Assembly (NCBI GenBank): GCA_050261575.1
Contig: JBLNDL010000014.1
Location: 10,054 to 74,053 of the forward strand
DNA: 64,000 nt
DNA from: Sphingomonadaceae bacterium
GTDB lineage: Bacteria; Chloroflexota; UBA6077
Direction of reading: 5' to 3'
Shown here: positions 7,422 through 26,756 of the stretch, piece by piece
Layout: each line of letters opens with the position of its first letter
Numbering within the stretch: the stretch's first letter is position 1
The notes under the pieces: model-generated
Seen by the model: the letters and a program-made list of their open reading frames with translations, nothing else
Database searches by the model: none
Told to the model about the DNA's origin: nothing
Position numbers and translations under genes: made by a program

Positions 7422-8213
7422 ATGGGCGATCAGGACCTGGGCAACAAGCCCATGTTGAAGAAGTTCGACCTCACCGGAAGGGTGGCGCTGGTGACCGGGT
7501 CGAGCCGTGGGATTGGCGCCGCCATGGCGGTGGCGCTCGCGGAGGCGGGCGCCGACCTGGCCTTGGTGGCTCGGACGGAGGATGCCCTGCAGGGGGTGGC
7601 CGGCCGGATTCGAGAATTGGGCCGGCGGGCGCTGGTGGTCCCCACCGACGTGTCTCGGGTGCCGGCTCTCACCCAAATGGTGGATCGAGTGGTGGCCGAA
7701 TACGGTCGAGTCGACATCCTGGTAAACGCCGCCGGAGTGCAGTGCCGGAAGCCGATACTGGAGGTGACGGAGGAGGAGTGGGACTTCGTCAACGACGTCA
7801 ACCTGAAGGCGGTGTACTTCTGTTCCCAGATCGTTGCCCGGCACATGCTGAAGCAGGGGAAGGGGAAGATCATCAACATAGCTTCACTCACCTCCACCAT
7901 TGGGATCGCAAACGTCAGCATCTACACGGCCACCAAGGGCGGGGTGCTGGCGCTCACCAGGGTCATGTCAAGGGAGTGGGCGAAGCAGGGGATCAGGGTG
8001 AACGCCATCGCCCCTGGCTACTTCCACACCGAATTGACCAAGCGGTTGTACGACGATCCCGCCCTGCGTCAGTGGGTCGTCGATCGGACCCCCGTGGGTC
8101 GTTGGGGCGAGTTGGAGGACCTGATGGGCACCGCGGTGTTCCTGGCGTCCGACGCATCGGATTTCATCACAGGCGAGCTGATAAACGTGGATGGTGGGTG
8201 GTTGTCGGCGTAG
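7422..8213 (+). CDS. SDR-family oxidoreductase (gluconate/2-deoxygluconate dehydrogenase-like)
   Basis: TGSSRGIGAAMA, NAAG, YTATKGG catalytic Tyr-x3-Lys; RBS GGAGGAGAGGA. Confidence 0.8.
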   Translation: MGDQDLGNKPMLKKFDLTGRVALVTGSSRGIGAAMAVALAEAGADLALVARTEDALQGVAGRIRELGRRALVVPTDVSRVPALTQMVDRVVAEYGRVDILVNAAGVQCRKPILEVTEEEWDFVNDVNLKAVYFCSQIVARHMLKQGKGKIINIASLTSTIGIANVSIYTATKGGVLALTRVMSREWAKQGIRVNAIAPGYFHTELTKRLYDDPALRQWVVDRTPVGRWGELEDLMGTAVFLASDASDFITGELINVDGGWLSA

Positions 8214-8250
8214 TGGGTGGCTGCCGGCGCAGAGGAAAGGAGGCCGGGTG

Positions 8251-13098: not shown

Positions 13099-13109
13099 GG
13101 GTGAAGGGG

Positions 13110-13760
13110 ATGGGGAAGATACGGGTACTGCTGGTTGACGACCACGCGATCCTGCGGGAGGGGATACGTGCCCTGCTCGCGCTGTCCAAGGATATCGACG
13201 TGGTGGGGGAGGCTGCCGACGGGCAGACGGGCATCGAGTGCGCGCGGGAGTTGGCGCCGGACGTGGTGCTGATGGATATCGCGATGCCTGTTCTGGACGG
13301 GCTGGAGGCCACGCGCCGGATCAAGGAGCGGCAGAAGGGGACGAAGGTGCTGATCCTGACCCAGCACGAGAATCGGGAGTACGTCTACCCCATCCTGAAG
13401 GCCGGCGCCGACGGGTACGTGCTGAAGAAGGCGGCGGGCACGGAGTTGATCTCGGCCATTCGTGCGGTGCACGAGGGCGGCACCTTCCTCTATCCCTCGG
13501 TGGCGAAGGCGGTGGTGGAGGACTACCTGCGTCCGGACGGGACGGTCGCCGAGCGTCGCCACGCCAGGCTCACAGACCGGGAGGTCGAGGTGCTGAAGCT
13601 GGTGGCGGAGGGGCGCAGCAACCAGGAGATCGCCGACCTGCTCTGCCTCAGCGTCAAGACCGTGACGGGACACCGGACCAACATCATGGAGAAGCTGGAT
13701 CTCCACAGCCGCACCGAACTGGTGAAGTACGCGATTCGGACCGGCCTGGTCCAGCCCTGA
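13110..13760 (+). CDS. NarL/LuxR-family response regulator
   Basis: VLLVDDH...D receiver domain; C-terminal LuxR HTH (EVLKLVAEGRSNQEIA); RBS GAAGGGGA. Confidence 0.85.
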   Translation: MGKIRVLLVDDHAILREGIRALLALSKDIDVVGEAADGQTGIECARELAPDVVLMDIAMPVLDGLEATRRIKERQKGTKVLILTQHENREYVYPILKAGADGYVLKKAAGTELISAIRAVHEGGTFLYPSVAKAVVEDYLRPDGTVAERRHARLTDREVEVLKLVAEGRSNQEIADLLCLSVKTVTGHRTNIMEKLDLHSRTELVKYAIRTGLVQP

Positions 13761-13768
13761 CGTTCGGC

Positions 13769-13803
13769 GAACAGGGCGTTTTTCCCCCTTGGAACAGGGC
13801 GTT
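13769..13803 (+). promoter_or_regulatory. tandem direct repeat GAACAGGGCGTT (x2, 23 bp centre to centre) in the dsrA upstream region
   Basis: GAACAGGGCGTT at 13769-13780 and 13792-13803, just downstream of the RR gene and ~170 nt upstream of the dsrA ATG. Confidence 0.4.
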
Positions 13804-13974
13804 CTGCGGATATGCCCCCCACCTCTGCTCCCCTAGACTGCGGACGGTAGCTTCCGCTCCGGCACCGTTTTCCATCCGAGGTCTCGCGCGCTGTCTCCCC
13901 GCCGGCTCTGGGGTGCCGATTCGTCCGCCATCAAACCGGGACAGGGGAGCGCGGAATGCTGTGGGAGGTAGTTG

Positions 13975-15159
13975 ATGGCAGACGATTCCAAGACACCCTT
14001 GGTGGACGAACTGGAAAAGGGAAGCTGGCCCAGTTTCGCCAAAGAAATGAAGCGGCGGGCCGAGAAGAACCTGGCCGCGAAGGACTTGGTAGGCCAGCTT
14101 GAACTCTCCTACCAGGAGAAACGGGTCCACTGGAAGCACGGCGGGGTCGTGGGCGTCAGGGGCTACGGGGGTGGGGTGATCGGTCGCTACTCCGACGTTC
14201 CCGAGAAGTTCCCCAACGCCGCCGAGTTCCACACGATGCGGGTGAACCAGCCCAGTGGCTGGTTCTACACCACCGAAAGCCTCCGCAAGCTGTGCGACGT
14301 TTGGGAGAAGTACGGGACGGGCCTCACCAACATGCACGGCTCCACAGGCGACATCATCCTCCTGGGCACGCAGACGGCCAACTTGCAGGAAGCCTTCAAC
14401 GCCCTGAGCGACGCCGGGTTCGACCTGGGTGGCTCCGGCTCCGACCTACGAACCCCGAGCGCCTGCGTGGGCCCCGCTCGATGCGAGTACGCCTGCATCG
14501 ACAGCCTGGGGATCTGCCACGACATCACTACGACCTACCAGAACGAGATTCACCGGCCGATGTGGCCCTACAAGTTCAAGATCAAGGTGGCGGGTTGCGC
14601 CAACGACTGCGTCGCATCCGTCGCCAGGTCCGATTTCGCCATCATCGGCACCTGGAAGGGCCCTTTGCGGATAGACCAGGCCGCGGTGAAGGAGTACATC
14701 GCCGCGGGCTTCGACGTGAAGGGCGAGGTGGTCGATATGTGCCCCACGAGGGCGCTGTGGCTGAACCAGGATGACAGCCTGGCTCTTGTCGCCGAGGAGT
14801 GCAAGCGCTGCATGCACTGTCTCAACAAGATGCCGAAGGCGATCAAGCCCGGCAGCGAGAAGGGCGCGACGATTATGGTCGGCGGGAAGGCCCCCATCGT
14901 CCGCGGCGCCTACCTCTCGTGGGTGGTCGTGCCATTCATGAAAATGGAGCCTCCCTACACGGAGTTGAAGGAGCTGCTGGAGAAGATCTGGGAGTGGTGG
15001 GACGAGCACGGGAAGTCCAGGGAGCGGATCGGGGAGTTGATCGACCGACTCGGGATGGGCCGCTTCCTCCGCGATCTGGGACTGGAGCCCTCGCCTGCGA
15101 TGGTGTTCCAGCCGAGGTCCAACCCCTACTACTTCTGGCAGCCCGAGGAGGTGAAGTGA
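13975..15159 (+). CDS. dsrA: dissimilatory sulfite reductase alpha subunit
   Basis: ~395 aa; siroheme/FeS Cys clusters ([16 protein letters not shown]), ferredoxin-like insert (CKRCMHCLN); RBS GGAGG. Confidence 0.85.
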
Positions 15160-15160
15160 G

Positions 15161-16225
15161 ATGGCAGAGGCTAGAACCGATTTCGGGCCTCCGTACTTCA
15201 AGGACATGTTGCCTCCGGTGATGGCGGAGAACTACGGCAAGTGGGTCTACCACGAGACGCTGCGCCCCGGGGTGTTGATGCACGTGGCCGAGAGCGGGGC
15301 GGCGGTCTACACGGTGAGGGTCGGCTCGCCCCGCCTGATGAGCATAGACACCATCCGAGAGCTGTGCGACGTGGCCGATCGGTACTGCGACGGCCACCTG
15401 CGCTTCACGAGCCGGCACAACGTCGAGTTTCTGCTGACCGACCCGGGCAAGATCGAGCCGCTGATGGCCGAAATGAAGAGCCGCGGCTGGCCGGTGGGCG
15501 GGACGGGAAACTCGATCAGCAACATCGTGCACACCCAGGGGTGGATCCACTGCCACAGTGCGGCCACCGACGCCTCCGCGCTGGTGAAGTCCATCATGGA
15601 CGAGGTCCAACCCTACTTCGAGAGCATGACGCTGCCCGCGAAGGTGCGGATCGCAGTGGCCTGCTGCCTCAATATGTGTGGCGCGGTGCACTGCTCCGAC
15701 ATCGCCCTTGTGGGGATCCATCGGAAGCCGCCAAAGGTGGACGCCGAGCGGCTGGCGAAGACCTGCGAGGTGCCGAACATCATCGCGGCCTGCCCGACTG
15801 CGGCGATCCGGCCGAACCCGAAGGAGAAGGGAGTCATCATCAACGAAGAGCGATGCATGTACTGCGGCAACTGCTTCACCGTGTGCCCGGCCATGCCCAT
15901 CGCCGACCCGGAGAACGACGGGGTGGCGGTCTTCGTGGGCGGCAAGGTGTCGAACGCGAGGAGCGCTCCGATGTTCTCCCGGCTGGCGATTCCATATCTG
16001 CCCAACAACCCGCCTCGCTGGCCCGAGACGGTGGCCGCGGTGAAGACCATCGTCGAGGTGTACGCGAAGCACGCCCGCAAGGGCGAGCGGGTCGGGGAGT
16101 GGATCGAGCGGGTCGGCTGGGAGCGGTTCTTCCAGTTGACGGGCATCCCGTTCACCGACAAGCACATCGACGACTTCCGCTTCGCTCCCACCACCTTCAG
16201 GACCTCGGCTGCGTTCAAGTGGTAA
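15161..16225 (+). CDS. dsrB: dissimilatory sulfite reductase beta subunit
   Basis: 354 aa; [20 protein letters not shown] siroheme-[4Fe-4S] motif, ferredoxin insert [12 protein letters not shown]; 1-nt gap after dsrA. Confidence 0.85.
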
Positions 16226-16283
16226 AGGAGTGGGATGGTGGGGGCGGGCTCCGCCCCCACCGATCCATCGAAGGGAGTTGGCC

Positions 16284-16475
16284 ATGAGTGAGGATCTGAA
16301 GGATCGGGTGATGGCCTATCTGGCCACGGTGGAGAAGGCGAAGAACAGGGACATCGCGAACGCCCTGGGGGCGCCGAAGCCCGAGGTGGACAAGGCGGTT
16401 GGCGACCTGGCCAAGGAGGACAAGATCGAGTACATCTACATCGGCACCTCCTACGTGAAGATCAAGGGGAAGTAG
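16284..16475 (+). CDS. dsrD: DsrD-like small winged-helix protein
   Basis: 63 aa MSEDLKDRVMAYLA...IEYIYIGTSYVKIKGK; position right after dsrB and size/pattern match DsrD; RBS GGAG. Confidence 0.55.
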   Translation: MSEDLKDRVMAYLATVEKAKNRDIANALGAPKPEVDKAVGDLAKEDKIEYIYIGTSYVKIKGK

Positions 16476-16487
16476 GGGCCCTCACCC

Positions 16488-16533
16488 CGCAACGCGAGCG
16501 AGTGCAGCGTTGCGCCTCTTGCAGAAGGAGAGG
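16488..16533. repeat. compound hairpin repeat: family H copy 4 plus CCTCTT..AGAGG hairpin
   Basis: CGCAACG-CGAGCGAGTGCAG-CGTTGCG, then CCTCTTGCAGAAGGAGAGG; preceded by GCCCTCACCCC. Confidence 0.55.
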
Positions 16534-16559
16534 GGGAACTGGGGACAGCCTCTCCCGTC

Positions 16560-17099
16560 GTGAGAGGGGGCTGGCAGGTAGCGGTGCTGACGGAGTTGAT
16601 CGAGGCGAACCGAGCCACGCTGCTGAAGCGATGGTTCGAATCGATATTGGAGGGTTACCCCTCGGACGTGGCCGGCCTTCTACGTCGGGAGGCTGACCCG
16701 TTCCTGAACCCCGTCGGAAGCACGATCTCCCGGGAGATCGGGACCGTGCTGGACGAGCTTCGCCGTGGCGGGGGCGGCGCCGGGCTCTCGGCCGCGCTGG
16801 ACGCCATCGTTCAGATCCGGGCGGTGCAGGAGATGGAGCCATCCCGGGCAGTCGGGTTCGTCTTCCTGCTCAAGAGGGTGGTGAGGGAGACGGTCGACGT
16901 CGAGGGCGCGGACCCGCGGCTGCAGGCTGAACTGCAGGAGTTCGAGTCCAGGGTGGATGGTGCGGCTCTTCTCGCCTTCGACCTGTACCTGAAGCATCGG
17001 GAGAGGATCCACGAGATCCGCACGAAGGAGGTTCGGGAGAGGTCCGAACGTCTGATGGAGCGGATGAGCCGGATCTACGGGATACGGGAGCCGGTGTAG
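16560..17099 (+). CDS. dsrT: DsrT-like protein (RsbRD_N-type domain)
   Basis: 179 aa between dsrD and dsrM; LKRWFESIL..ADPFLNPVG pattern resembles the RsbRD N-domain/DsrT; start uncertain (GTG 16560 or 16584). Confidence 0.45.
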   Translation: MRGGWQVAVLTELIEANRATLLKRWFESILEGYPSDVAGLLRREADPFLNPVGSTISREIGTVLDELRRGGGGAGLSAALDAIVQIRAVQEMEPSRAVGFVFLLKRVVRETVDVEGADPRLQAELQEFESRVDGAALLAFDLYLKHRERIHEIRTKEVRERSERLMERMSRIYGIREPV

Positions 17100-17312
17100 G
17101 GGCAGGCGGGCGTGTCTGCCCGGCCGAGGTGGAAGCGCGGCGCCGTGTGTGAGGGACGAGGGCGCACCCGTGTGTGCGCCCCTGCCAGGGTGACGCCGCG
17201 TCGGTAGGGGCTGACGCGCATCGGTCTGGGCGGGCCCGAAGAGCAGTCGACGGCGAGAACGCCGAGTCGGCGGGCATGGTGGCAGGGCTGCCGGCCCCCA
17301 CGTTACCCACTC

Positions 17313-17358
17313 CACAACGCGAGCGAGCGCAGCGTTGCGCCTCTCCCAGGGGGAGAGG
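17313..17358. repeat. compound hairpin repeat: family H copy 5 plus CCTCTCCC..GGGAGAGG hairpin
   Basis: CACAACG-CGAGCGAGCGCAG-CGTTGCG, then CCTCTCCCAGGGGGAGAGG; ~70 nt upstream of dsrM. Confidence 0.55.
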
Positions 17359-17425
17359 CAGAGTAGCGGAGAGATCCAGCGAGCGAGGCATTCGTTCCGA
17401 TGGCCGTGAAGCGAGGCAGTGCTAG

Positions 17426-18430
17426 ATGAGAATCCTCTGTCCCATGCTGGCGGTCCTGGCCATCGCCCTGATCGGGCTGGCGGGCGGGAGCGTGAGCGGC
17501 CTGCGAGCCGTCTTCGGCATCGCCATTCCGTATCTGGCCCTCGGTCTCTTCGTCGTGGGGTTGGTGTGGAGGGTGGTGGACTGGGCCAGATCGCCCGTCC
17601 CCTACCGCATACCCACCACCTGCGGGCAGCAGAGATCGCTGCCCTGGCTGAGAGCCAGTAACCTGGAGAGCCCGCACGACACCCTGGGCGTCGTGGGCCG
17701 TATGGCCCTGGAGGTGCTGGCGTTCCGGTCCCTGTTCCGGAATAGCTCCGTGGAGATAAGGGGCAAGCGGCTGCTATACCGCGACCGGAAGCTGCTGTGG
17801 GTGGCCGCGATCTTCTTCCACTGGTCCATGCTGGTGGTGATCCTCCGGCACTCGCGCTTCTTCCTGGAGCCGGTGCCTGTCTTCGTCTCCCTGCTCCAAT
17901 CGTTGGACGGGTTCTTCCAGATAGGCGAGCCGGTGCTGTTCGTCACGACGGTGGGCTTCCTGGCCGGGCTGAGCTACCTGCTGGTCCGCCGGGTGGTGCT
18001 GCCGCAGGTCCGCTACATCTCGCTGCCATCGGACTACTTCCCCCTCTTCCTCCTCATTGGCATCGGGCTCACCGGTGTCCTGATGCGCCACTTCTTCCGC
18101 ACCGACGTGGCGGCGGTGAAGGATCTGACCCTGGGGTTGGTGAGCCTTCAGCCCGTGGTTCCGGACGGGGTGTCGCCCCTCTTCTTCGCCCACCTGCTTC
18201 TGGTCAGCAGCCTCTTCGCCTACTTCCCCGCGAGCAAGCTGATGCACGCGGGTGGCATCTTCCTGAGCCCGACCAGAAACCTGGCGAACGACAGCCGAGC
18301 GCGCAGGCACGTGAACCCGTGGAACCATCCGGTGCCGGTCCACAGCTACTGGGAGTGGCAACAGGAGTTCAAGGACAAGCTGGAGGCGGCGGGGCTGCCG
18401 TTGGATCCCGAGCCGAGTCGAGAAGGTTGA
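17426..18430 (+). CDS. dsrM: DsrM, membrane di-heme b subunit (NarI/HdrE-like)
   Basis: 334 aa, ~6 TM helices, conserved His in TM helices; first gene of the dsrMKJOP block. Confidence 0.8.
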   Translation: MRILCPMLAVLAIALIGLAGGSVSGLRAVFGIAIPYLALGLFVVGLVWRVVDWARSPVPYRIPTTCGQQRSLPWLRASNLESPHDTLGVVGRMALEVLAFRSLFRNSSVEIRGKRLLYRDRKLLWVAAIFFHWSMLVVILRHSRFFLEPVPVFVSLLQSLDGFFQIGEPVLFVTTVGFLAGLSYLLVRRVVLPQVRYISLPSDYFPLFLLIGIGLTGVLMRHFFRTDVAAVKDLTLGLVSLQPVVPDGVSPLFFAHLLLVSSLFAYFPASKLMHAGGIFLSPTRNLANDSRARRHVNPWNHPVPVHSYWEWQQEFKDKLEAAGLPLDPEPSREG

Positions 18431-18431
18431 G

Positions 18432-20069
18432 ATGCCGGAGAAGAAACCGACACCAGAGCAGTTGATGCAGGTGGATCACACGCCGCCCTCGCGGGACTGG
18501 ATGGACGCCCACGTCGACTTCCAGGCCAGGAGGGGCAGCTACTGCTACAGCGCGAAGCCGGAGATGCTCGAATATCTCGGCATGCCCAACCCTCGGAAGT
18601 GGCAGCCCTACGATGAGGACTGGAAGCTTCCCCCGGACTGGAGGGAGACGATCCTGGAGGGGATGAAGGAGAGGCTGGCGAAGTACCGCTCCTTCAAGCT
18701 CTTCATGGACATCTGCGTGCGATGCGGCGCTTGTGCAGACAAGTGTCACTACTTCGTCGGCTCCGGGGACCCGAAGAACATGCCCGTCCTGAGGGCTGAG
18801 CTGATGAGGTCGGTGTACAGGAGGTACTTCACCACCTCCGGGAGGCTGTTGGGACGTTTCGGGGGGGCGCGCGAGCTGACGGAGGAGGTGCTGAAGGAGT
18901 GGTTCTACTACTTCTACCAGTGCACCGAGTGCCGCCGCTGCTCCGTCTTCTGTCCCTACGGCATCGACACCGCCGAGATCACGATGATGGGGCGGGAGCT
19001 GCTCAATCTGGTGGGGGTGAACATCAACTGGATCCTGGAGCCTGCCGCCAACTGCTACCGCACCGGCAACCACCTGGGGGTCCAGCCGCACACCTTCAAG
19101 GACAACCTGGAGTTTGCCGCATCGGATCTAGAAGACATCACGGGGGTTAAGGTCGAGGCGCCGATCAACAGGAAGGGCGCCGAGGTGCTGGTGATCGTGC
19201 CCTCGGCAGACTACTTCGGGAATCCCCACTACTATACCTTCCTGGGCTACCTGGCGATCTTCCAGGAGATAGGGCTGGACTACACCTTCAGCGCGTTCGC
19301 GTCGGAGGGAGGCAACTTCGGCCTGTTCTCCTCGCACGAGATGGCGAAGCGGCTGAACGCTAAGATCTACGCGGAGGCCGAGAGGCTGAAAGTGAAGTGG
19401 ATCCTGGGGGGCGAGTGCGGCCACATGTGGAGGGTGCTGCACCAGTACATGGACACGCACAACGGCCCCGCCGACTTCTTGGAGGTGCCGGTCTCGCCGA
19501 TCACGGGAACAAGGTTCGAGCATGCCAGGTCGACGAAGATGGTGCACATCGCCGAGTTCACGGCGGACCTGCTGCGGCACGGGAAGCTGAAGCTCGACCC
19601 GAGCCGGAACGACCGCTGGCGGGTGACCTACCACGACTCCTGCAACCTCGCGCGGAGCATGGGGCTGTTCGAGGAGCCGCGCTACATCCTGAGGAGTTGC
19701 TGCAACCACTTCTACGAGATGCCGGAGAACACCATCCGGGAGAAGACCTTCTGCTGCGGGAGTGGCTCAGGATTGGGGACCGAGGAGAACCTGGAGATGA
19801 GGCTGCGGGGCGGGCTGCCCAGGGCCAACGCGGTGAAGCACGTGCACGATAAGTACGTCGTGAACCTGCTCGCCTGCATGTGTGCTATCGACAAAGCCAC
19901 TCTTCCGACGCTGATGGAGTATTGGGTGCCGGGGGTGGAGGTCGCCGGCGTGCACGAGCTGTTGGGCAACGCCCTCGTGATGACAGGCGAGAAGAAGCGG
20001 ACCACGGACCTGCGCTTCGAGCCTCTGCCGGGCGTGGAGGAGGCGGAGGGGGTGGAAGCCAATGTATGA
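18432..20069 (+). CDS. dsrK: DsrK, cytoplasmic FeS/CCG-domain subunit (HdrD-like)
   Basis: 545 aa; CVRCGACADKCH and CTECRRCSVFCP ferredoxin motifs; CCG-domain cysteines (CCGSGSG). Confidence 0.85.
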   Translation: MPEKKPTPEQLMQVDHTPPSRDWMDAHVDFQARRGSYCYSAKPEMLEYLGMPNPRKWQPYDEDWKLPPDWRETILEGMKERLAKYRSFKLFMDICVRCGACADKCHYFVGSGDPKNMPVLRAELMRSVYRRYFTTSGRLLGRFGGARELTEEVLKEWFYYFYQCTECRRCSVFCPYGIDTAEITMMGRELLNLVGVNINWILEPAANCYRTGNHLGVQPHTFKDNLEFAASDLEDITGVKVEAPINRKGAEVLVIVPSADYFGNPHYYTFLGYLAIFQEIGLDYTFSAFASEGGNFGLFSSHEMAKRLNAKIYAEAERLKVKWILGGECGHMWRVLHQYMDTHNGPADFLEVPVSPITGTRFEHARSTKMVHIAEFTADLLRHGKLKLDPSRNDRWRVTYHDSCNLARSMGLFEEPRYILRSCCNHFYEMPENTIREKTFCCGSGSGLGTEENLEMRLRGGLPRANAVKHVHDKYVVNLLACMCAIDKATLPTLMEYWVPGVEVAGVHELLGNALVMTGEKKRTTDLRFEPLPGVEEAEGVEANV

Positions 20070-20445
20070 CGGTGGGAAGATCGTCCCAGGGCTGATCCTC
20101 TTCCTGGGGTTGCTGTTGACGCCCTTCTGGTACAACGCCGGGGCGGGGCGGGCGGCTGCAAAGCCGGAGATCGTAAAGCCGGTCGACGAGAAGGCGTGCG
20201 TGGAGCCGGCGGAGTTCATGCGGGCCAACCACATGCGGCTGCTGATCGACTGGCGCGAGGACGCCGTGCGCGGCGGCGACCTGCTGTACGTGGCCGGCGA
20301 CGGGAGGAAGCACGACAAGAGCCTCAGCAACAACTGCATGAAGTGCCACTCCAACAAGGAGGAGTTCTGCGACCGGTGTCACGACTACGCCCAGGTTAAG
20401 CCTAACTGCTGGGATTGCCACACGGTCCCCAAGGAGGGGAAGTGA
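20062..20445 (+). CDS. dsrJ: DsrJ, periplasmic triheme cytochrome c
   Basis: 127 aa, N-terminal signal/TM, three CXXCH (CMKCH, CDRCH, CWDCH). Confidence 0.8.
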   Translation: MYDGGKIVPGLILFLGLLLTPFWYNAGAGRAAAKPEIVKPVDEKACVEPAEFMRANHMRLLIDWREDAVRGGDLLYVAGDGRKHDKSLSNNCMKCHSNKEEFCDRCHDYAQVKPNCWDCHTVPKEGK

Positions 20446-21245
20446 TGCGAGCGGACAGAAGGCAGTTCCTGAAGATTGCCGGGGTCGCTGTCCTGGGGCT
20501 GGGCCTCAAGGGTGGTGCGGATCTGCTGAATGGCGGCCGGCTCGTGGAGGCCTCGGTCGTCGGAGGCGTGCCGGGCCGGAGCCCCCGCGCGGGCAAGCGG
20601 TGGGCGATGGTGGTGGATCTGCCGAAGTGCTGGGAGGGCAAGGGGTGCACCGACTGCATCGACGCCTGCCACAGAGAGCACAACGTTCCCCACTTCGAGG
20701 AGCCGAAGAACGAGGTGAAGTGGGCATGGCAGGACCGTTACGAGGTCGCCTTCTCCGGCCAGGACCCGCGGCTGCTATCCCCCGGCCTCCGGGATAGGTC
20801 CGCTCTCCTGATGTGCAACCACTGCGACAACCCCCCGTGCGTCCGGGTGTGTCCGACCAGGGCAACCTGGCAGCGGGAGGACGGGATAGTGGCGACGGAC
20901 ATGCACCGTTGCATCGGCTGCCGCTACTGCATGGTGGCCTGCCCCTATGGGGCGAGGAGCTTCAACTGGATCGACCCTCGACGGGGTCTGGACATGGAGA
21001 AGGTGAACGCCGATTTCCCCACCAGGACGCGGGGGGTGGTGGAGAAGTGCACCTTCTGTGCGGAGAGGATCGACAGGGGCGGCGCCCCCGCCTGCGTCGA
21101 GGCGTGCCGGCAGAAGGCGCTGACGTTCGGCGACCTGAACGACCCAGCCTCTGAGGTGAGGAGGATCGTCGAGTCGCGGTACACCCTGGTGCGGCGGCCG
21201 GAGTTGGGGACCAGGCCGCAGGTGTACTACGTGGCCTCGCAGTGA
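20445..21245 (+). CDS. dsrO: DsrO, periplasmic Tat-exported 4x[4Fe-4S] ferredoxin-like subunit
   Basis: RRQFLK twin-arginine signal; CNHCDNPPCVRVCP, CIGCRYCMVACP, CTFCAERI FeS motifs; ATG overlaps dsrJ stop. Confidence 0.8.
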   Translation: MRADRRQFLKIAGVAVLGLGLKGGADLLNGGRLVEASVVGGVPGRSPRAGKRWAMVVDLPKCWEGKGCTDCIDACHREHNVPHFEEPKNEVKWAWQDRYEVAFSGQDPRLLSPGLRDRSALLMCNHCDNPPCVRVCPTRATWQREDGIVATDMHRCIGCRYCMVACPYGARSFNWIDPRRGLDMEKVNADFPTRTRGVVEKCTFCAERIDRGGAPACVEACRQKALTFGDLNDPASEVRRIVESRYTLVRRPELGTRPQVYYVASQ

Positions 21246-21252
21246 GGTAGAG

Positions 21253-22425
21253 ATGGTGGAGAAAGCGCTGAGGGGAAGCCGCGCGTATTGGGGCTGGCTG
21301 CTGTTCCTGCTCGCTGTGTCCGTGACAGGGCTCGGCTTCTACCTGTGGCAGGCCGCGACCGGCACCGAGGCATCGGGGCTGAGCAGGGACGTGCCGTGGG
21401 GCTTCTTCATCGCGAACTACACGTTCATGGTCGGGGTGGCAGCTTCGGCCGTCGTGGTGGTGATACCGTACTACCTCCACAGCCAGAGGGAGTTCGGCCG
21501 GATGATCGCGCTGGGGGAGTTCCTGGCCGTAGCAGCGGTGCTGACGACCCTGCTGTTCATCATGGCGGACCTGGGCCAACCCGGCAGGATGTTCAACATC
21601 CTCCTCTACCCGACGCCCAATTCCCCCTTCTTCTGGAATACCATCGTCCTGCCGGGCTACCTGCTGCTGAATCTGGTGATAGCCTGGTTCACCCTGGATG
21701 CCGAGCGGCACGACGTGCCGGTGCCCGGCTGGGTGAAGCTGCTGATCCTGGTGTCGATCCCCTGGGCGATCAGCATCCACACCCTTACGTCGTTCGTCTA
21801 CAGCGGGTTGGTGGCGAGGCCGTTCTGGAACAGCGCCATATTGACCCCCCGCTTCCTCGCCTCGGCCTTCGCCTCGGGTCCTGCGCTGCTGGTGATCCTG
21901 GCGCTGGTGGTGAGGCGTTACACCGGCTACGATCCGGGCAGCAGGGCCATAGAGAAGGTGGCGCTGATCGTCACCTACGCTGCCACCGCCAACCTGTTCC
22001 TGGTGCTGGTGGAGATCTTCGCAGTGGTGTACAGCAACGTCGCGGGGCACATGGAGCACTTCGAATACATGTTCTTCGGCCTCGAAGGGCGCGGCCAGTT
22101 GGTGCCATGGATGTGGCTCTCGGTGATCGTGGCGGTGGTGTCGGTCGCGCTGCTTATCGTCCCGCGGACTCGCAGGAACGAGAAGACGTTGCTGGCGGCC
22201 TGCGCGGGGGTGTTCTTCTCCACGTGGATCGACAAGGGACTCTGCCTCGTGGTGGGGGGATTCGTTCCCTCGACGCTCGGCAGGATCACGGAGTACCTGC
22301 CAACGGTGCAGGAGTGGGTGATCGCTGGCGCGATATACGCAGCCGCGGGGATGTTGTTGACGTTGCTGTACAAGGTGGCCATCGGCGTGAGACTGGAAGA
22401 GGAGGAGGTGCAGGAATGCCGATAA
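21253..22425 (+). CDS. dsrP: DsrP, NrfD/PsrC-type integral membrane subunit
   Basis: 390 aa, ~10 TM helices, NrfD-like topology. Confidence 0.8.
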   Translation: MVEKALRGSRAYWGWLLFLLAVSVTGLGFYLWQAATGTEASGLSRDVPWGFFIANYTFMVGVAASAVVVVIPYYLHSQREFGRMIALGEFLAVAAVLTTLLFIMADLGQPGRMFNILLYPTPNSPFFWNTIVLPGYLLLNLVIAWFTLDAERHDVPVPGWVKLLILVSIPWAISIHTLTSFVYSGLVARPFWNSAILTPRFLASAFASGPALLVILALVVRRYTGYDPGSRAIEKVALIVTYAATANLFLVLVEIFAVVYSNVAGHMEHFEYMFFGLEGRGQLVPWMWLSVIVAVVSVALLIVPRTRRNEKTLLAACAGVFFSTWIDKGLCLVVGGFVPSTLGRITEYLPTVQEWVIAGAIYAAAGMLLTLLYKVAIGVRLEEEEVQECR

Positions 22426-22733
22426 TCACTCTGAGGGGCCGGGACTTCGAGGTGGACGAGGACGGGTTCCTGGAGGATCCGACGATTTGGAACGAGGAGG
22501 TAGCTCGCTGCTTCGCCGACACCGAAGGCATCGCGGAGCTGACCGAGGATCACTGGAAGGTGATCAACTACCTGCACAACTACTACCAGCAGTACGGGAT
22601 CGCCCCGATGATCCGGAAGCTATGCAAAGACACCGGTTTCGATCTAAAATACATTTACCAGCTATTCCCCTCAGGCCCAGCCAAGGGAGCCTGCAAGCTG
22701 GCTGGTCTGCCGAAGCCCACCGGGTGCGTGTAG
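22416..22733 (+). CDS. dsrC: DsrC (TusE/DsrC family) with conserved C-terminal arm
   Basis: 105 aa ending ...GACKLAGLPKPTGCV (two conserved Cys in the flexible arm); RBS GGAGGAGG; overlaps dsrP 3' end by 10 nt. Confidence 0.85.
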   Translation: MPIITLRGRDFEVDEDGFLEDPTIWNEEVARCFADTEGIAELTEDHWKVINYLHNYYQQYGIAPMIRKLCKDTGFDLKYIYQLFPSGPAKGACKLAGLPKPTGCV

Positions 22734-22770
22734 GCCATCATTTCGGAGTTGAGGAGAACAGGGCAAGAGG

Positions 22771-22959
22771 ATGTACGTCATCACTATCAACGAGGATAAG
22801 TGTGAGGGCGACGGGGAGTGCGTGAGCACCTGCCCGGTGGAGATGTTCGAGCTGAAGAACGGCAAGGCCGTCCAGGTGGGCTCGACGGACGACTGCCTCG
22901 GCTGCGAGAGTTGCGTGAGCGTCTGCCCCAGCGGGGCGATCACGCTGCAGGAGATGTAG
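22771..22959 (+). CDS. small 2x[4Fe-4S] ferredoxin
   Basis: 62 aa; CEGDGECVSTCP and CLGCESCVSVCP. Confidence 0.7.
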   Translation: MYVITINEDKCEGDGECVSTCPVEMFELKNGKAVQVGSTDDCLGCESCVSVCPSGAITLQEM

Positions 22960-22973
22960 CCTAACGGCAACAG

Positions 22974-23000
22974 CGAAGGGGGGTGGAAGGCCCCCCTTCT
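22974..23000. terminator. GC-rich hairpin between the convergent dsr operon and the dsrMK-like operon (possible bidirectional terminator)
   Basis: CGAAGGGGGG-TGGAAGG-CCCCCCTTC followed by T-rich TTCTCGATTCC. Confidence 0.5.
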
Positions 23001-23006
23001 CGATTC

Positions 23007-24602
23007 CTACCACTCGAGATAGGGAGGGAGGTCGGACATCGCGTTCACGATCAACTCGGCCAGGCCGCCGTAGTGGAGGTTGTGTTTCTCCCCGATGCCG
23101 TAGAACTCCAGCAGCCCCCGCATCTGCCCCTTGCAGTTGGAGCAGGGGGCGCAGACGTACTTGGGGATGGATGGATCCATCTCCCCCTCGAAGGCTTCGA
23201 GTATCTGCTTCAGCTTCGTCCGGCCCGAGATCGCGTTCCGCCACTCGGGGAAGTTGAGCGCCTGCATGATTGCGAAGCCGCTGCCACCCCCGCAGCAGTA
23301 GTTCTCCACGCCGTGCGGGGCCATCTCCCGGAAGCGTGGGGCGATCCGCCGCAAGATCCTGCGCTGGGGCTCCACGATCCCCATCAGCCGCACGACGTTG
23401 CAGGGATCGTGGAGGGTCACCGGGAAGTCGTTTCGGCCGGGGTCCAACTCCAGCCTGCCGGAGGCGACGAGGCCGTCTAGCAGGGTGAGGCAGCTCTCCC
23501 TGGGCACGTTGTACTCGGCTGCGAATATGCGGTCGGCGATGACCGAGAGCGCCTTGTGGGCGTGGCCGCACTCGCCGATCACGATCTTCTTCACCTTCAG
23601 CTTCTTCGCCACCTGGGCGTGCCTGAGGGCGATGCGGGCGAACTGGACGTCGTCGTACCAGAGGCCGTAGTTGACGGCGTCGTATCCGAGCAGGTCGCTG
23701 GAGAGGGTGTAGCTTAGCCCTGCCCGTTCGAAGACGATGGCGAACGCCTCCGGGTTCTCCGGCCAGGCCACGAACTCGCCCGCATTGTGGAGCAGCAGGA
23801 TATCCGCCCCCTCCTTGTCCACCGGCCACTCGAAGCTGAGGCCGGTGCGGTCCGTGACGTCCTCCTGGAGGAACTCGATGTTGTTGGCCAGCGCGGCCGG
23901 TGTCATCCCCGTGCTGGAGCCGACCCGAAGCTGCTGGATCGTTCCCTGCTGGTGGATTTCCTTTGGGGCGATCCCCATCTCCATGCTGAACAGCTTCCTG
24001 ATCTCGTGGGCCACGAGCCCGTTGTCCACGCCGATGGGGCACGCCTGGGCACAGCGGCGGCAGAGGTTGCAGCGGTAGGCCAGCTCCGCCAGGCGGGCCA
24101 CGGTTCGCCAGTTCAGCTCGACTTCCGCGCCGGACAGCTTCGCCCTGAGCCTCCCCGCGGGGGAAAGGTACTTCCTGACGATACGGCGGAGGACCTCCGT
24201 GCGGAAGCTCGGGCGGTAGGCTGGGAGGCGGCCGCTGGCCTGGTAGACGTGGCAGGCGTCGGCGCAACTCTGGCAGCGGGCGCAGTTGTCCAGGGAGAGC
24301 ACGAGCGGCTGCCAGAAGGCCCAGTTGCTGTCGCGAGAGAGCAGCTTCCGAAGCCCTCGGAGGAAGCTCTCCACCAGCGTCCTCTCCGCCTCGGGCGAGC
24401 CCGGTTTGGGGATGGCGATGGCGGAGTAGCCATCCAGGGAGGCCTCAAGGGTCTTGCGGCGATCGGACCTGACCCCCTGCAGGGGGGGGAGTGGGGCCTC
24501 GCAGGGGAAGGGGAGCGGCATCAACCCCTCCGAGCGCGGCTGAAACAACGGGTCGGTCTCCCGACCGAAGTCCCGCTCGTTCAACTCGGGATAGCCCTCC
24601 AT
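23007..24602 (-). CDS. DsrK/HdrD-like FeS (CCG-domain) oxidoreductase, paralog 2
   Basis: CARCQSCADACH, CNLCRRCAQACP, CCGGGSGF; similar architecture to dsrK; ATG overlaps upstream stop (TGATG); RBS GGAGG. Confidence 0.75.
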   Translation of the reverse strand: MEGYPELNERDFGRETDPLFQPRSEGLMPLPFPCEAPLPPLQGVRSDRRKTLEASLDGYSAIAIPKPGSPEAERTLVESFLRGLRKLLSRDSNWAFWQPLVLSLDNCARCQSCADACHVYQASGRLPAYRPSFRTEVLRRIVRKYLSPAGRLRAKLSGAEVELNWRTVARLAELAYRCNLCRRCAQACPIGVDNGLVAHEIRKLFSMEMGIAPKEIHQQGTIQQLRVGSSTGMTPAALANNIEFLQEDVTDRTGLSFEWPVDKEGADILLLHNAGEFVAWPENPEAFAIVFERAGLSYTLSSDLLGYDAVNYGLWYDDVQFARIALRHAQVAKKLKVKKIVIGECGHAHKALSVIADRIFAAEYNVPRESCLTLLDGLVASGRLELDPGRNDFPVTLHDPCNVVRLMGIVEPQRRILRRIAPRFREMAPHGVENYCCGGGSGFAIMQALNFPEWRNAISGRTKLKQILEAFEGEMDPSIPKYVCAPCSNCKGQMRGLLEFYGIGEKHNLHYGGLAELIVNAMSDLPPYLEW

Positions 24603-25507
24603 CACTTCGCCTCCGAGGCCGCGTCGGCCCAACTCTCGTCGGGATCGATGTGGGGCGCGGACCAGCCGACCGGCCGGGCCAGGTTGGATCGCATGCGGTC
24701 CAGCATTCGGGGGTCGCCGAGGTTAGGGGCATCGTCCCAACGCACCTGGTGGTAGGTGAAGTACTTGGCGACGAAGTGGGTCATGTGAGTGAATGGCAGG
24801 TAGATCAGGAACAGGGCGGCCACGACGACCTGGGCGGCGACGGCGGGGCTCACGTGGGGCGGCGTGCCGAAGGTGAGCGCTCCCCGGAGGAACGCTCGAA
24901 GTTGGGAGAGGGAGGGGTCCGCGGTGAGCCAGGCGAACGCGGCAGAGAGGAAGACCGCGAGCAGGAAGATCAGGTTGACGTAATCCGCGCGCGTGCTGGA
25001 GTTCCTGAGCCGCGCGTCGGTGAGGCGACGGCGCAGTAGGGAGAGCGCCCCGAACGTGGCGGAGAGGAGCCCGGCGGCACCGGTGGCGTGGGTGAACCCA
25101 TCGAGGACGCTCCACCAGGGGGGCGGGTCGCCCGCGGGCTGCAGGGCGGCGCCTAGGACGAGCAGCAGGGTGAAGCCGAAGAGGAGGTAGATGCCGGCGT
25201 GGAACGGGAAGGAGGCGCACCAGTGGGGGCGATTGTGGTGCCAGAGGCTGCGGACGAGCAGCATCTCCTCCAGCATCGCCCGGATCTCTCCCGATAGGCT
25301 AGTGTCCCGGGGGCGGGTCCACCAGTCTGGATCCTCGAAGTAGGAGCCGCCGTGGTCTGCCTTGCCCTTTTCATGGGGCACGGGGTAAAGCTCCCAGCGG
25401 AGGTGCATCGGTGCGCGCGCGTACTTGGCGGCGGTCAGCGCGACGCCGGTGAAGAAGGCCAGGACCGAGATGTAGGTAAGCGCCAGCAGCAGCGACGGTC
25501 CGATCAA
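24602..25507 (-). CDS. DsrM/HdrE/NarI-like membrane heme-b protein, paralog 2
   Basis: 301 aa, 5-6 TM helices with conserved His; TTG start with RBS GGAGGA; translationally coupled to the downstream DsrK-like gene. Confidence 0.65.
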   Translation of the reverse strand: MIGPSLLLALTYISVLAFFTGVALTAAKYARAPMHLRWELYPVPHEKGKADHGGSYFEDPDWWTRPRDTSLSGEIRAMLEEMLLVRSLWHHNRPHWCASFPFHAGIYLLFGFTLLLVLGAALQPAGDPPPWWSVLDGFTHATGAAGLLSATFGALSLLRRRLTDARLRNSSTRADYVNLIFLLAVFLSAAFAWLTADPSLSQLRAFLRGALTFGTPPHVSPAVAAQVVVAALFLIYLPFTHMTHFVAKYFTYHQVRWDDAPNLGDPRMLDRMRSNLARPVGWSAPHIDPDESWADAASEAK

Positions 25508-25588
25508 TGGCTGTCCTCCGATGCTCGGTCGAGAGATGGGCTAGCGGGGGCGGAATCGGGCCACCAGAGTCAGTATACGGGGAATGGA

Positions 25589-25606
25589 GCAGCTTCGCAT
25601 GGGGCG
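25589..25606. promoter_or_regulatory. 18-bp perfect palindrome ATGGGGCGTACGCCCCAT upstream of the dsrMK-like operon
   Basis: Perfect dyad ~85 nt upstream of the TTG start at 25507, in the divergent region shared with coaX. Confidence 0.35.
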
Positions 25607-25964
25607 TACGCCCCATTTTGCGGTGGTGAGATCGCAGTATTGGCTTCGGGTAACCGGATCACGGTGGTCGACGCATGGCTTCCCCATTTACCCAGGCGTG
25701 GTCTTTCGCAGCAGTGCTCATCGAGAACGACCACCGCTGTCATCCACACGGGCTCAGCGGCGCTCCACTGCGATGCCATCGCCGGGCTTCGGCCCTCGGG
25801 GGCGGCTGTCTTCAGGTAGGCAGTGACGGCCTCTCTGACGCCGGACTCGAGTCCCAGGGGGAGAGGGGGGTGGGAGCGGGTGCCGGCCAAGTGGCGATCG
25901 AGTAGGGCTGTTGATATACTGAGATCATCTGGGGACGACGCCGTCCCGACCGGAGGACGCGAGG

Positions 25965-26756
25965 GTGCGAAGCGAGGAGAAGGACGCTTTGCTGCTGGCC
26001 GTAGACGTGGGGAACACCAACACCGTGGTAGGGGTCTTCCAGGGGGAGGAGTTGGTCGCCGATTGGCGGCTGGCCACCGACTCCCACACGATGCCGGACG
26101 AGTACGCCGTCCTGCTGTGGAGTCTGTTGGGCTACCGGGGCCTGAGCATGTCGCAGCTCGATGCCGCCATCATCGCCAGTGTGGTGCCGAAGGTGACGGC
26201 CAATCTGAGGGAGATGATCGAGAGGTACGTGCGGGTCGAGGCGCTGGTGGTTGGGCCTGGCATCGAAACGGGGGTTCGTATCGGGATCGACAACCCGAAG
26301 GAGGTTGGCGCGGACCGGATCGTGAACGCGCTGGCCGCGTACAGGCTGTACGGTGGACCCGCGATAGTCATCGACCTGGGCACAGCCACCACCTTCGATG
26401 CGGTTTCCGCCGACGGGGAGTACCAGGGAGGGGCGATCGCGCCGGGGATCCTGACCTCGGTGGAGGCGCTCGCGCGCCAGACGGCCAGGTTGCCGCGCGT
26501 GGACATGGTGAGGCCCGCGCACGCCATCGGCAGGGACACCCTGAGTGCGATGCAGTCGGGCATCATTCTCGGCCACGCCTCAATGGTGGAGGGGATGGTG
26601 CGCAGGATCGCCGCGGAGATGGAGGGCGAGCCTCGCGTCGTCGCGACCGGCGGGCTGTGCGCGGTGATGGCCGCCGAAGTGCCCCTCATCGAGGTGGCGG
26701 ACAAGAACCTCACCCTGAAGGGGCTGAGGATGATGTACGAGTTGAACAGGCGGTAG
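25965..26756 (+). CDS. coaX: type III pantothenate kinase
   Basis: LLAVDVGNTNTVVGV..., DLGTATTFD, Bvg accessory factor/CoaX family signature. Confidence 0.85.
   Translation: MRSEEKDALLLAVDVGNTNTVVGVFQGEELVADWRLATDSHTMPDEYAVLLWSLLGYRGLSMSQLDAAIIASVVPKVTANLREMIERYVRVEALVVGPGIETGVRIGIDNPKEVGADRIVNALAAYRLYGGPAIVIDLGTATTFDAVSADGEYQGGAIAPGILTSVEALARQTARLPRVDMVRPAHAIGRDTLSAMQSGIILGHASMVEGMVRRIAAEMEGEPRVVATGGLCAVMAAEVPLIEVADKNLTLKGLRMMYELNRR

Follow-up and report, generated by a model that had tools for sequence, protein, structure and literature searches.

Why should a genome that already encodes a complete DsrMKJOP complex carry, beside its dsr operon, a second gene pair for a NarI-like membrane cytochrome and an iron-sulfur protein with a CCG domain? 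The question is raised by a stretch of 64,000 nucleotides (hereafter the window), positions 10,054 to 74,053 of the forward strand of contig JBLNDL010000014.1 (assembly GCA_050261575.1), in which such a pair, here called M2 and K2, lies on the minus strand. Taken as a whole, the pair is probably an operon for a member of the DsrM2K2 family, with a DsrC-linked quinone role and a regulated promoter. This family is widespread, has been named in passing in the literature and is uncharacterised; the gene pair is an ordinary member of it, and the locus is not extraordinary. The elements of the pair are as follows.

23007–24602, minus strand: K2, DsrK-like cytoplasmic iron-sulfur subunit, 531 aa, ATG at 24602
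24604–24600, minus strand: TGATG, overlap of the M2 stop and the K2 start, read from the sequence
24602–25507, minus strand: M2, NarI/DsrM-like membrane cytochrome b, 301 aa, TTG start
25514–25519, minus strand: GGAGGA, Shine-Dalgarno sequence of M2, 6 nt 5' of the TTG, from sequence and conservation

The K2 reading frame is open over 23007–24632, and its first ATG, at 24602, gives the 531-aa protein. The TGA of M2 (24604–24602) and the ATG of K2 (24602–24600) have an A in common, an overlap already named in the original prediction and present in the sequence, indicating probable translational coupling of the two genes. The proposed TTG start of M2 was confirmed as well: GGAGG is found in eight of nine aligned upstream sequences (the row of locus L090 is incomplete there), the TTG aligns with the ATG of the orthologue in eight related contigs, and the product matches Pfam Nitrate_red_gam (PF02665) with 38.3 bits, for a cutoff of 22.9. 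The pair does converge on the dsr operon, K2 being separated from the ferredoxin gene by 47 nt. It is not part of DsrMKJOP, since it stands alone on the minus strand and the JOP genes go with the MK pair of the plus strand; the idea of a paralogous two-subunit module (NarI-like protein plus CCG iron-sulfur protein) beside a full DsrMKJOP is supported.

Concerning K2, every sequence signature of the DsrK catalytic subunit is present. As defined in PMC10861901, DsrK has two cubane clusters and a single CCG motif (CXnCCGXnCX2C/D), as well as the cysteine of GECGH, which is strictly conserved. K2, which matches the Pfam families Fer4_8 (4Fe-4S dicluster) and CCG, has two CX2CX2CX3C motifs for [4Fe-4S] clusters (C107/110/113/117 and C178/181/184/188), a single complete CCG motif (C401...C436-C437-G438...C487-x2-C490) and the GECGH cysteine C345 (G343-E-C345-G-H347), so that the earlier observation that its cysteine motifs parallel those of DsrK holds. 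These motif cysteines are invariant in 76 of 76 K2 sequences, as is an additional, family-specific cysteine, C484. The last CCG position is Cys in all 76 K2 sequences, vs. Asp in 19 and Cys in 13 DsrK sequences; in the window, DsrK reads C-A-I-D and K2 C487-S-N-C490. JOP-linked DsrK is reported to have often Asp at this position, and AF0543, AF0544 and AF0547 of A. fulgidus to have Cys (PMC10861901).

Among the NCBIfam models, K2 is best matched by DsrK (347.6 bits), followed by HmcF (185.9 bits) and TmcB (181.2 bits), with LdhH, TfrB, GlcF, GlpC and LutB at 42 bits at most. The DsrK score is below the equivalog cutoff of 400 bits (NF045796). With the same model, five other members of the K2 family score 330–356 bits, the DsrK of the window 722 bits and a short DsrK of the DsrMK-only type 424.7 bits; the K2-family scores are sub-threshold alike in Archaeoglobaceae and in delta-proteobacterial, Thermoguttaceae and Bacillota metagenome-assembled genomes (MAGs). 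The AlphaFold model of K2, built on a 14-row alignment (predicted local distance difference test score, pLDDT, 66.7), was used for fold assignment only, and its best PDB match by Foldseek is HdrB (5odc_B, probability 1.0). A sequence search of the PDB returned no solved DsrK or DsrM, EtfD and NarI being the sole matches, both marginal.

The original prediction left the choice between a DsrMK-only type and an HdrDE-like module. The first part is retained, as a paralogue of the DsrMK-only type, and the second is not. Like M2K2, HdrDE of Methanosarcina combines a cytochrome b and a CCG protein in two subunits, and the best fold match of K2 is an Hdr protein. However, HdrD has two complete CCG motifs, where K2 has one and only the single GECGH cysteine of the second; in addition, HdrD reduces CoM-S-S-CoB and HdrE has both haem sites.

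The family to which K2 belongs is large. A database search with K2 gave 4752 proteins at E ≤ 1e-20, and the best 120 matches, 60–100% identical and from many phyla, are all named only '(Fe-S)-binding protein', the M2 homologues being named 'respiratory nitrate reductase subunit gamma'. A genome scan gave at least 586 loci, the best 80 of which, with flanks of up to 10 kb, were used for the synteny and tree analyses. These 80 loci cover more than 10 phyla plus the Archaeoglobaceae at 55% identity or more, a floor that reflects the choice of the best 80. They come from Chloroflexota, Syntrophaceae (Smithella, Syntrophus), Syntrophorhabdaceae, Desulfomonilaceae, Acidobacteriota, Gemmatimonadota, Planctomycetota, Zixibacteria, Ignavibacteria, Fibrobacteraceae, Methylomirabilis and Archaeoglobaceae.

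A neighbour-joining tree was made from 76 K2 sequences and 33 other DsrK-like sequences of these loci. K2 is monophyletic in it, its stem measuring 0.50 substitutions per site. Within K2 the median identity is 62% (minimum 55%), vs. 27% between K2 and JOP-linked DsrK (range 22–34%); K2 and DsrK of the window are 28% identical. K2 forms a clade of its own, and the pair is probably a distinct and ancient paralogue of the DsrMK module. A higher conservation of K2 than of DsrK was considered and rejected, the medians being 64% and 69%, respectively, for the same genome pairs.

Other DsrK-like lineages were seen in the same material. A third group, about 27–29% identical to both K2 and DsrK, is found in loci L009, L017, L029, L032, L035, L044, L070, L075 and L084, in a cluster with genes for a Macro-domain protein, an unknown 231-aa protein and a histidine kinase, often directly 5' of M2K2. 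In L089, a close Chloroflexota relative, a short DsrMK (12259–14333; 243 and 448 aa, 424.7 bits with the DsrK model) stands in place of DsrMKJOP beside dsrABD, and M2K2 is still kept, which points to at least three DsrK-like lineages.

The genomic context was analysed by clustering all open reading frames (ORFs) of the 80 loci and annotating the recurrent clusters. M2 adjoins K2 in 76 of the 80 loci, and across many phyla the pair shows genetic linkage to dsrC, dsrAB and dsrN. Neighbours that recur are DsrC (30 loci), DsrO (28), DsrN (27), DsrP (25), DsrM (25), DsrJ (24) and DsrA/B (22), and the layout seen most often is dsrA-dsrB-dsrN-dsrC-M2-K2-(dsrT)-dsrM-dsrK-dsrJ-dsrO-dsrP. Within the flanks fetched, 41 loci have a dsr gene, as do 29 of the 48 loci with at least 5 kb on both sides. 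The window's pair is thus orthologous to M-K pairs that are linked to dsrC, dsrN or dsrAB and stand apart from the JOP-linked pair. In 17 loci M2 is directly preceded, on its own strand, by a DsrC-family gene, whose product ends in 15 of these in ...C-x10-C-(V/L), the C-terminus of the window's DsrC; the ending is different in the other two. In 13 loci (L020, L029, L050, L052, L053, L055, L059, L077–L079 and L081 among them) a conserved ORF of about 214–228 aa, which has no Pfam or NCBIfam match, was observed 3' of dsrP.

Nine related Chloroflexota contigs have a K2 that is 70–85% identical. In eight of them M2-K2 converges on fdx-dsrC-dsrPOJKM-T-D-B-A, as in the window, and the ferredoxin gene adjoins the pair; L090 has no dsr gene nearby. 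The gene 5' of M2 varies among these contigs (coaX, a MacB transporter gene and others). Farther away, a MerR-family gene of about 172 aa lies 5' of M2K2 on the same strand (about 500 nt) in eight loci of Planctomycetota, Gemmatimonadota and Zixibacteria (L007, L009, L011, L014, L017, L018, L027 and L073), within a few bases in five of the eight, an arrangement read as translational coupling, and a divergent MerR gene (7829–8248) flanks dsrC-like-M2-K2 in L094, from a Bacillota MAG. The module would accordingly seem to be regulated in these loci in another, lineage-specific way.

As for M2, five transmembrane (TM) helices are predicted, and the AlphaFold model (pLDDT 81.6) has NarI (1q16_C/3egw_C) and EtfD (9ojn) as top Foldseek matches (probability 1.0), the TM-score (target) of the NarI match, 0.58, agreeing with a five-helix NarI fold. 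The score with the NCBIfam DsrM model is 29.2 bits, vs. a cutoff of 300, and the identity with the window's DsrM is 22%. A di-haem subunit (haems bP and bD) is expected to have four ligand histidines, two in TM2 at 10 residues from each other and two in TM5 at 18 residues. M2 has half of this set: H103 and H244, the proximal-haem pair, are kept, and the columns of the distal-haem histidines are occupied by T113 and Q226. In NarGHI, the ligands of the proximal haem bP are H56/H205 and those of the distal haem bD are H66/H187. With phmmer, Q226 falls opposite H187 of E. coli NarI and H244 opposite H205. The bP/bD scheme is also summarised in a 2026 EMO preprint.

An alignment of 24 DsrM and 74 M2 sequences extends this observation to the family. 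The DsrM histidines H132, H142, H256 and H274 are present in 100, 100, 96 and 100% of the sequences, respectively, with all four in 23 of 24 (the remaining one has Pro at H256), and the haem-ligating histidines have been described as highly conserved across DsrM (Neukirchen et al., PMC10504309). In M2, H103 and H244 are found in 99% of the sequences each, and His in the other two columns in 15% and 27%. Both distal histidines are missing from M2 of the eight Chloroflexota relatives, and His at position 113 occurs in none of 41 closer database homologues. Since the ten four-histidine M2 sequences fall into one K2 subclade, next to the Archaeoglobaceae, the loss follows clades and is not alignment noise. 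Because only the histidine pair of the cytoplasm-proximal haem is kept, M2 most likely has a single haem b, like EtfD of mycobacteria. The description of M2 as a heme-b protein of the NarI/HdrE type is therefore right as to its NarI-like nature, and needs qualifying as to haem b, two of the four DsrM/NarI ligand histidines being absent.

M2 also has a conserved cytoplasmic loop of 65 residues (PMHLRWELYPVPHEKG...GGSYFE), which does not exist in DsrM. Within residues 30–95 (about 25223–25420 in the window) it has an almost invariant motif, P-M-H35-L-R-W-E-L-Y-P-V-P-H45-E-K-G...G-G-S-Y-F-E, and two further invariant histidines, H253 and H286, lie in the C-terminal tail; canonical DsrM is without H35, H45 and H253. 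These loop and tail histidines could form the interface with K2 or an additional ligand set.

The nearest solved analogue is the mycobacterial EtfD/EMO (PDB 9ojn), an ETF:menaquinone oxidoreductase in which a NarI-like and an HdrD-like part are fused with the same domain logic as M2K2. It is the closest solved structure to M2 by fold and to K2 by sequence, although the latter similarity is marginal (E = 3e-4 over 80 residues). In M. smegmatis, EtfD has a single haem b on His78/His241 with menaquinone 4–5 Å away, and its electron transfer has been read as 'without energetic coupling' (2026 EMO preprint). EtfD differs from M2K2 in being one polypeptide with two CCG domains (linear [3Fe-4S] and non-cubane cluster), in working with ETF and in having no dsr linkage. 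The other obvious reference is DsrMK of DsrMKJOP, a menaquinol:DsrC-trisulfide oxidoreductase (Hme of A. fulgidus, DsrMKJOP of Desulfovibrio; PMC10861901). M2K2 shares with it the NarI-like membrane subunit, the signature of the iron-sulfur subunit, the linkage to dsrC and dsrAB and DsrK as best profile match, and differs in its low identity (27–28% for K, 22% for M), in the absence of JOP partners, in the constant Cys of the last CCG position together with Cys484, in the missing distal-haem histidines and in the 65-residue loop.

By analogy with these systems, we infer that M2K2 would be a single-haem, non-electrogenic quinol:DsrC-trisulfide reductase. K2 would reduce the DsrC trisulfide, or the DsrC disulfide, exchanging electrons with the menaquinone pool via M2, whose single haem b would communicate with quinone on the cytoplasmic side, and the pair would serve as an uncoupled isoenzyme beside the energy-conserving DsrMKJOP. 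A broader generalisation is tentative and rather less probable: most DsrM2K2 members, the window's included, may have lost the distal haem and become single-haem, non-electrogenic quinol:DsrC-trisulfide reductases, many sulfite and sulfate reducers then carrying a coupled DsrMKJOP and an uncoupled DsrM2K2 under separate regulation.

How the pair may be regulated was approached through its upstream region, aligned for nine species, where four islands of conservation stand out over a background pairwise identity of 0.37. One is the Shine-Dalgarno island (25514–25519; 0.73–0.79). The other three, with a second palindrome of the window, are listed below.

25572–25577, minus strand: TATACT, putative -10-like hexamer, pairwise identity 0.93
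25599–25616, no strand assigned: perfect 18-bp palindrome ATGGGGCGTACGCCCCAT, local version of a conserved inverted repeat
25626–25641, minus strand: second conserved upstream block AATACTGCGATCTCAC (AATAGTGCGATCTCA-like), pairwise identity 0.58–0.62 vs. 0.37
16723–16740: second perfect 18-bp palindrome CGATCTCCCGGGAGATCG, inside the RsbRD_N/DsrT-like ORF (16560–17099)

The palindrome of the original prediction is present and perfect, but at 25599–25616, 10 nt from the 25589–25606 given there, and 91 nt, not about 85, 5' of the M2 TTG. Its perfection is not significant, since in 200 dinucleotide shuffles perfect 18-bp palindromes occurred 0.43 times per window and at least once in 35% of the shuffles, and since the window, which is GC-rich, has a second one in a coding region. 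What distinguishes the site is its conservation. The full inverted repeat, AATGGGGC-AAAC-GCCCCATG (25597–25618), has a like sequence in the same position in eight of the nine related contigs, with the consensus ATGGGGC-N4-GCCCCAT and a pairwise identity of 0.68–0.78. The outer arms ATGGGG/CCCCAT are kept in these eight and the four central bases vary without compensation, the copy of L092 being degenerate. TATACT is found in seven of the nine contigs, the other two having TACACT and TAGACT, and the inverted repeat ends 20–22 nt 5' of it in all species (21 nt in the window). The block at 25626–25641 reads ATAGTGCGATCTCA or ATAGTGTGATCACA in relatives; it might be an UP-like element or else a second site.

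If TATACT is the -10 hexamer, we infer that the inverted repeat sits over the -35 position, centred near -42. Transcription would start 3' of TATACT, and a dimeric regulator would bind ATGGGGC-N4-GCCCCAT over the -35 position. Because the repeat is 5' of the presumed transcription start, a protein-binding site at the DNA level is favoured over an RNA hairpin; a terminator role is unlikely, since the upstream gene is divergent in the window (coaX) and different in the other species. What would be expected of an operator, namely an inverted repeat kept in orthologous promoters with constant spacing to core elements, is found in eight of nine contigs and supports the reading of this repeat as a candidate regulator binding site, in agreement with the original proposal.

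That the palindrome is no operator at all, being due to chance, a DNA or RNA hairpin of different function or a piece of the -35/UP region, is a minor but real possibility. It is favoured by the shuffling result and the coding-region copy, by the uncompensated centre and the degenerate L092 sequence, by the lack of an adjacent regulator gene and by a motif with little recurrence: a position weight matrix built from the eight sites gave a single other hit above threshold in the 64-kb window, a weak one, and neither it nor a relaxed pattern gave a second strong site there or in the related loci. Against it stand the arms, kept in eight of nine contigs despite different upstream neighbours, their fixed spacing to TATACT and the divergent upstream gene.

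Further searches delimit the motif. The exact palindrome, searched in all loci, occurs only in contigs of the same organism, and no similar palindrome was found in the MerR-linked loci, which makes the candidate operator specific to this lineage. Weak hits 5' of dsrA (13772–13791 in the window, and in L089) were rejected as operators, as they belong to a direct-repeat motif, AGGGCGTTYT, with only a half-site in common. A generic sigma-70 and terminator scan of 22700–26100 called no promoter (no good -35) and only two weak intragenic terminator-like sites. Rfam gave no match on the whole window, and the conserved upstream block therefore corresponds to no known RNA.

Several points weigh against the reading of the pair as a DsrC-linked, single-haem module with a regulated promoter. 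In the fetched flanks, 39 of the 80 loci have no dsr gene, and some have a MerR-family gene instead. K2 and M2 are both under the NCBIfam cutoffs for DsrK and DsrM, and the structural model of K2 is of moderate confidence only (pLDDT 66.7). The single-haem assignment of M2 comes from sequence alignment only, M2 has four further invariant histidines (H35, H45, H253 and H286), and EtfD keeps one distal histidine although the haem is absent, so that ligand counting is imperfect (EMO preprint). The promoter elements are deduced from conservation in nine related contigs only. Finally, biochemistry has been reported for no family member, a literature search having found no biochemical study of a DsrM2K2 paralogue.

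The substrate question depends in part on the dsr operon of the window, which is complete, of the reductive type and located on the plus strand (13972–22959) in the order dsrABD-T-MKJOP-C-fdx. Its genes pass NCBIfam or Pfam models, apart from the dsrD-like ORF and dsrJ.

13972–15159, plus strand: dsrA, by profile model
15161–16225, plus strand: dsrB, by profile model
about 16284–16475, plus strand: dsrD-like small ORF, by eye from sequence and position, not by model
16560–17099, plus strand: RsbRD_N/DsrT-like protein, by profile model
17426–18430, plus strand: dsrM, by profile model
18432–20069, plus strand: dsrK, by profile model (DsrK, 722 bits)
20062–20445, plus strand: dsrJ, by position and CxxCH motifs, not by model
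20415–21245, plus strand: dsrO, by profile model
21253–22425, plus strand: dsrP, by profile model
22422–22733, plus strand: dsrC, TIGR03342 (124.6 bits), product ending in ...CKLAGLPKPTGCV
22771–22959, plus strand: ferredoxin of 62 aa, 2x[4Fe-4S], by profile model
22975–22999, no strand assigned: GC-rich hairpin, GAAGGGGGG...CCCCCCTTC, stem of 9 bp, within the 47 nt that separate K2 from the convergent ferredoxin gene

DsrC is likely the substrate protein of both DsrK and K2. The hairpin (-24.6 kcal/mol, with a z-score of only -1.68) has no T-run and was not called by the terminator scan; it may be a bidirectional terminator without T-run. Other features of the operon were observed along the way. 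The operon, over 13972–22959, has no dsrN, a gene that in most other loci lies between dsrB and dsrC, just 5' of M2K2. Genes for a Cache-HAMP-GAF histidine kinase and a LuxR/GerE response regulator (10657–13760) are directly 5' of dsrA. The region between them and dsrA (13761–13971) has a pair of direct repeats, ACAGGGCGTT(T/C)T, which are spaced by about 22 nt and lie around 13771–13806; L089 has a similar pair, and the half-site GGGCGTT resembles the right arm of the candidate operator of M2. As for the source of the DNA, proteins 100% identical to those of the window belong to a public record named 'MAG: Sphingomonadaceae bacterium', and the named close relatives (69–85% identity) are all labelled Chloroflexota. 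The contig behind the Sphingomonadaceae label is likely mislabelled or mis-binned.

The original prediction had raised the possibility of a different thiol or disulfide substrate, and this is the strongest rival for the function of the pair, if an unlikely one: a DsrMK-like, quinone-linked thiol/disulfide reductase acting not on DsrC but on another persulfide or heterodisulfide carrier, or on a low-molecular-weight disulfide. It would fit the invariant, family-specific C484 and a last CCG position that is always Cys, never Asp, the 39 loci without dsr neighbours and the eight with a MerR-family gene 5', the atypical C-terminus of the DsrC-like protein adjacent to the pair in L094 (Bacillota), and the fact that the organism already has DsrMKJOP for DsrC. 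It is not favoured, given the dsrC directly 5' of the pair in 17 of 80 loci (15 with the C-x10-C-(V/L) ending), the dsr genes in the flanks of 41, the pair being embedded between dsrC and dsrT-MKJOP in many phyla, and the abutment of the window's own pair on dsrC-fdx.

Another rival concerns the direction of electron flow. The pair might run in reverse, as in EtfD/EMO, from a cytoplasmic donor (reduced DsrC or persulfide in sulfur oxidation or disproportionation, or the adjacent ferredoxin) to menaquinone, which we judge improbable. EtfD is a single-haem menaquinone reducer, the 62-aa ferredoxin gene adjoins the pair here and in eight of nine related contigs, and in sulfur oxidisers DsrMKJOP is believed to operate in the reverse direction (PMC6018796). 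However, dsrD and dsrT in the window are markers of the reductive type, etfAB genes are absent from the vicinity, and K2 has one complete CCG motif plus GECGH, the catalytic pattern of DsrK, vs. the two CCG domains of EtfD.

Membership of a characterised non-dsr family (GlpC, GlcF, LutA/LldE, LdhH, TfrB, HdrDE, TmcBC or HmcEF) is hardly credible: the CCG domain common to all of them accounts for weak matches, yet GlpC, GlcF, LutA-LldE and LdhH give 21.7, 23.4, 21.1 and 42 bits vs. cutoffs of 278–800 (15–42 bits for such families overall), TmcB and HmcF give 181–186 bits vs. cutoffs of 735 and 750, all far from the 347.6 bits of DsrK, no glpAB, etfAB, Tmc/Hmc cytochrome c or lactate permease partner genes are present, and HdrD has two complete CCG motifs vs. 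one. The clustering with glycerol-3-phosphate or lactate dehydrogenase iron-sulfur subunits, by which the original prediction would have fallen, is thus not seen.

Second DsrMK sets have been mentioned before. 'dsrMK-paralogs (dsrM2, dsrK2) upstream of dsrAB' were described as not uncommon (Hausmann et al., PMC6018796), a second set is listed for Desulfosporosinus (PMC6372793), and the DiSCo tool has separate models for an 'alternative DsrMK type' (PMC8477390). A basal DsrMK-only clade, whose deltaproteobacterial members also have DsrMKJOP, was reported by Neukirchen et al. (PMC10504309), and the second DsrMK(K) set of A. fulgidus shows constitutive, high expression (PMC3949148). By synteny and published descriptions, the family of the window is most probably that of dsrM2/dsrK2 and AF0544–AF0547: in a Thermoanaerobaculia (Acidobacteriota) locus (L080) M2-K2 lies 5' of dsrAB, and an Archaeoglobaceae locus (L034) has the divergent K2-M2/M2-K2 layout expected from the reports on AF0544–AF0547. 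The dsrM2/dsrK2 literature gives no function, cofactor analysis or regulation, and two features appear to be unreported, namely the absence of distal-haem ligands from most family members and the conserved promoter architecture in this Chloroflexota lineage.

DsrMK is the step at which sulfate and sulfite respiration is thought to conserve energy. Doubt has been raised (PMC3949148) that menaquinol could drive the reduction of the DsrC trisulfide against the membrane potential. A second MK pair, present in many phyla and often directly 3' of dsrC, has been noted but ignored, under the generic names used by databases. If it does have only the haem on the cytoplasmic side, this would offer a testable explanation for the persistence of the paralogue beside DsrMKJOP: a coupled and an uncoupled enzyme, resembling NDH-1 and NDH-2 or the coupled and uncoupled forms of EMO/EtfD, would give cells a choice, at the last step of sulfate respiration, between energy yield and rate or thermodynamic feasibility. 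Models of sulfur cycling would then be affected as to energy yield, reversibility and isotope fractionation. In uncultured Chloroflexota, the conserved promoter motif provides a handle for finding the regulator of M2K2.

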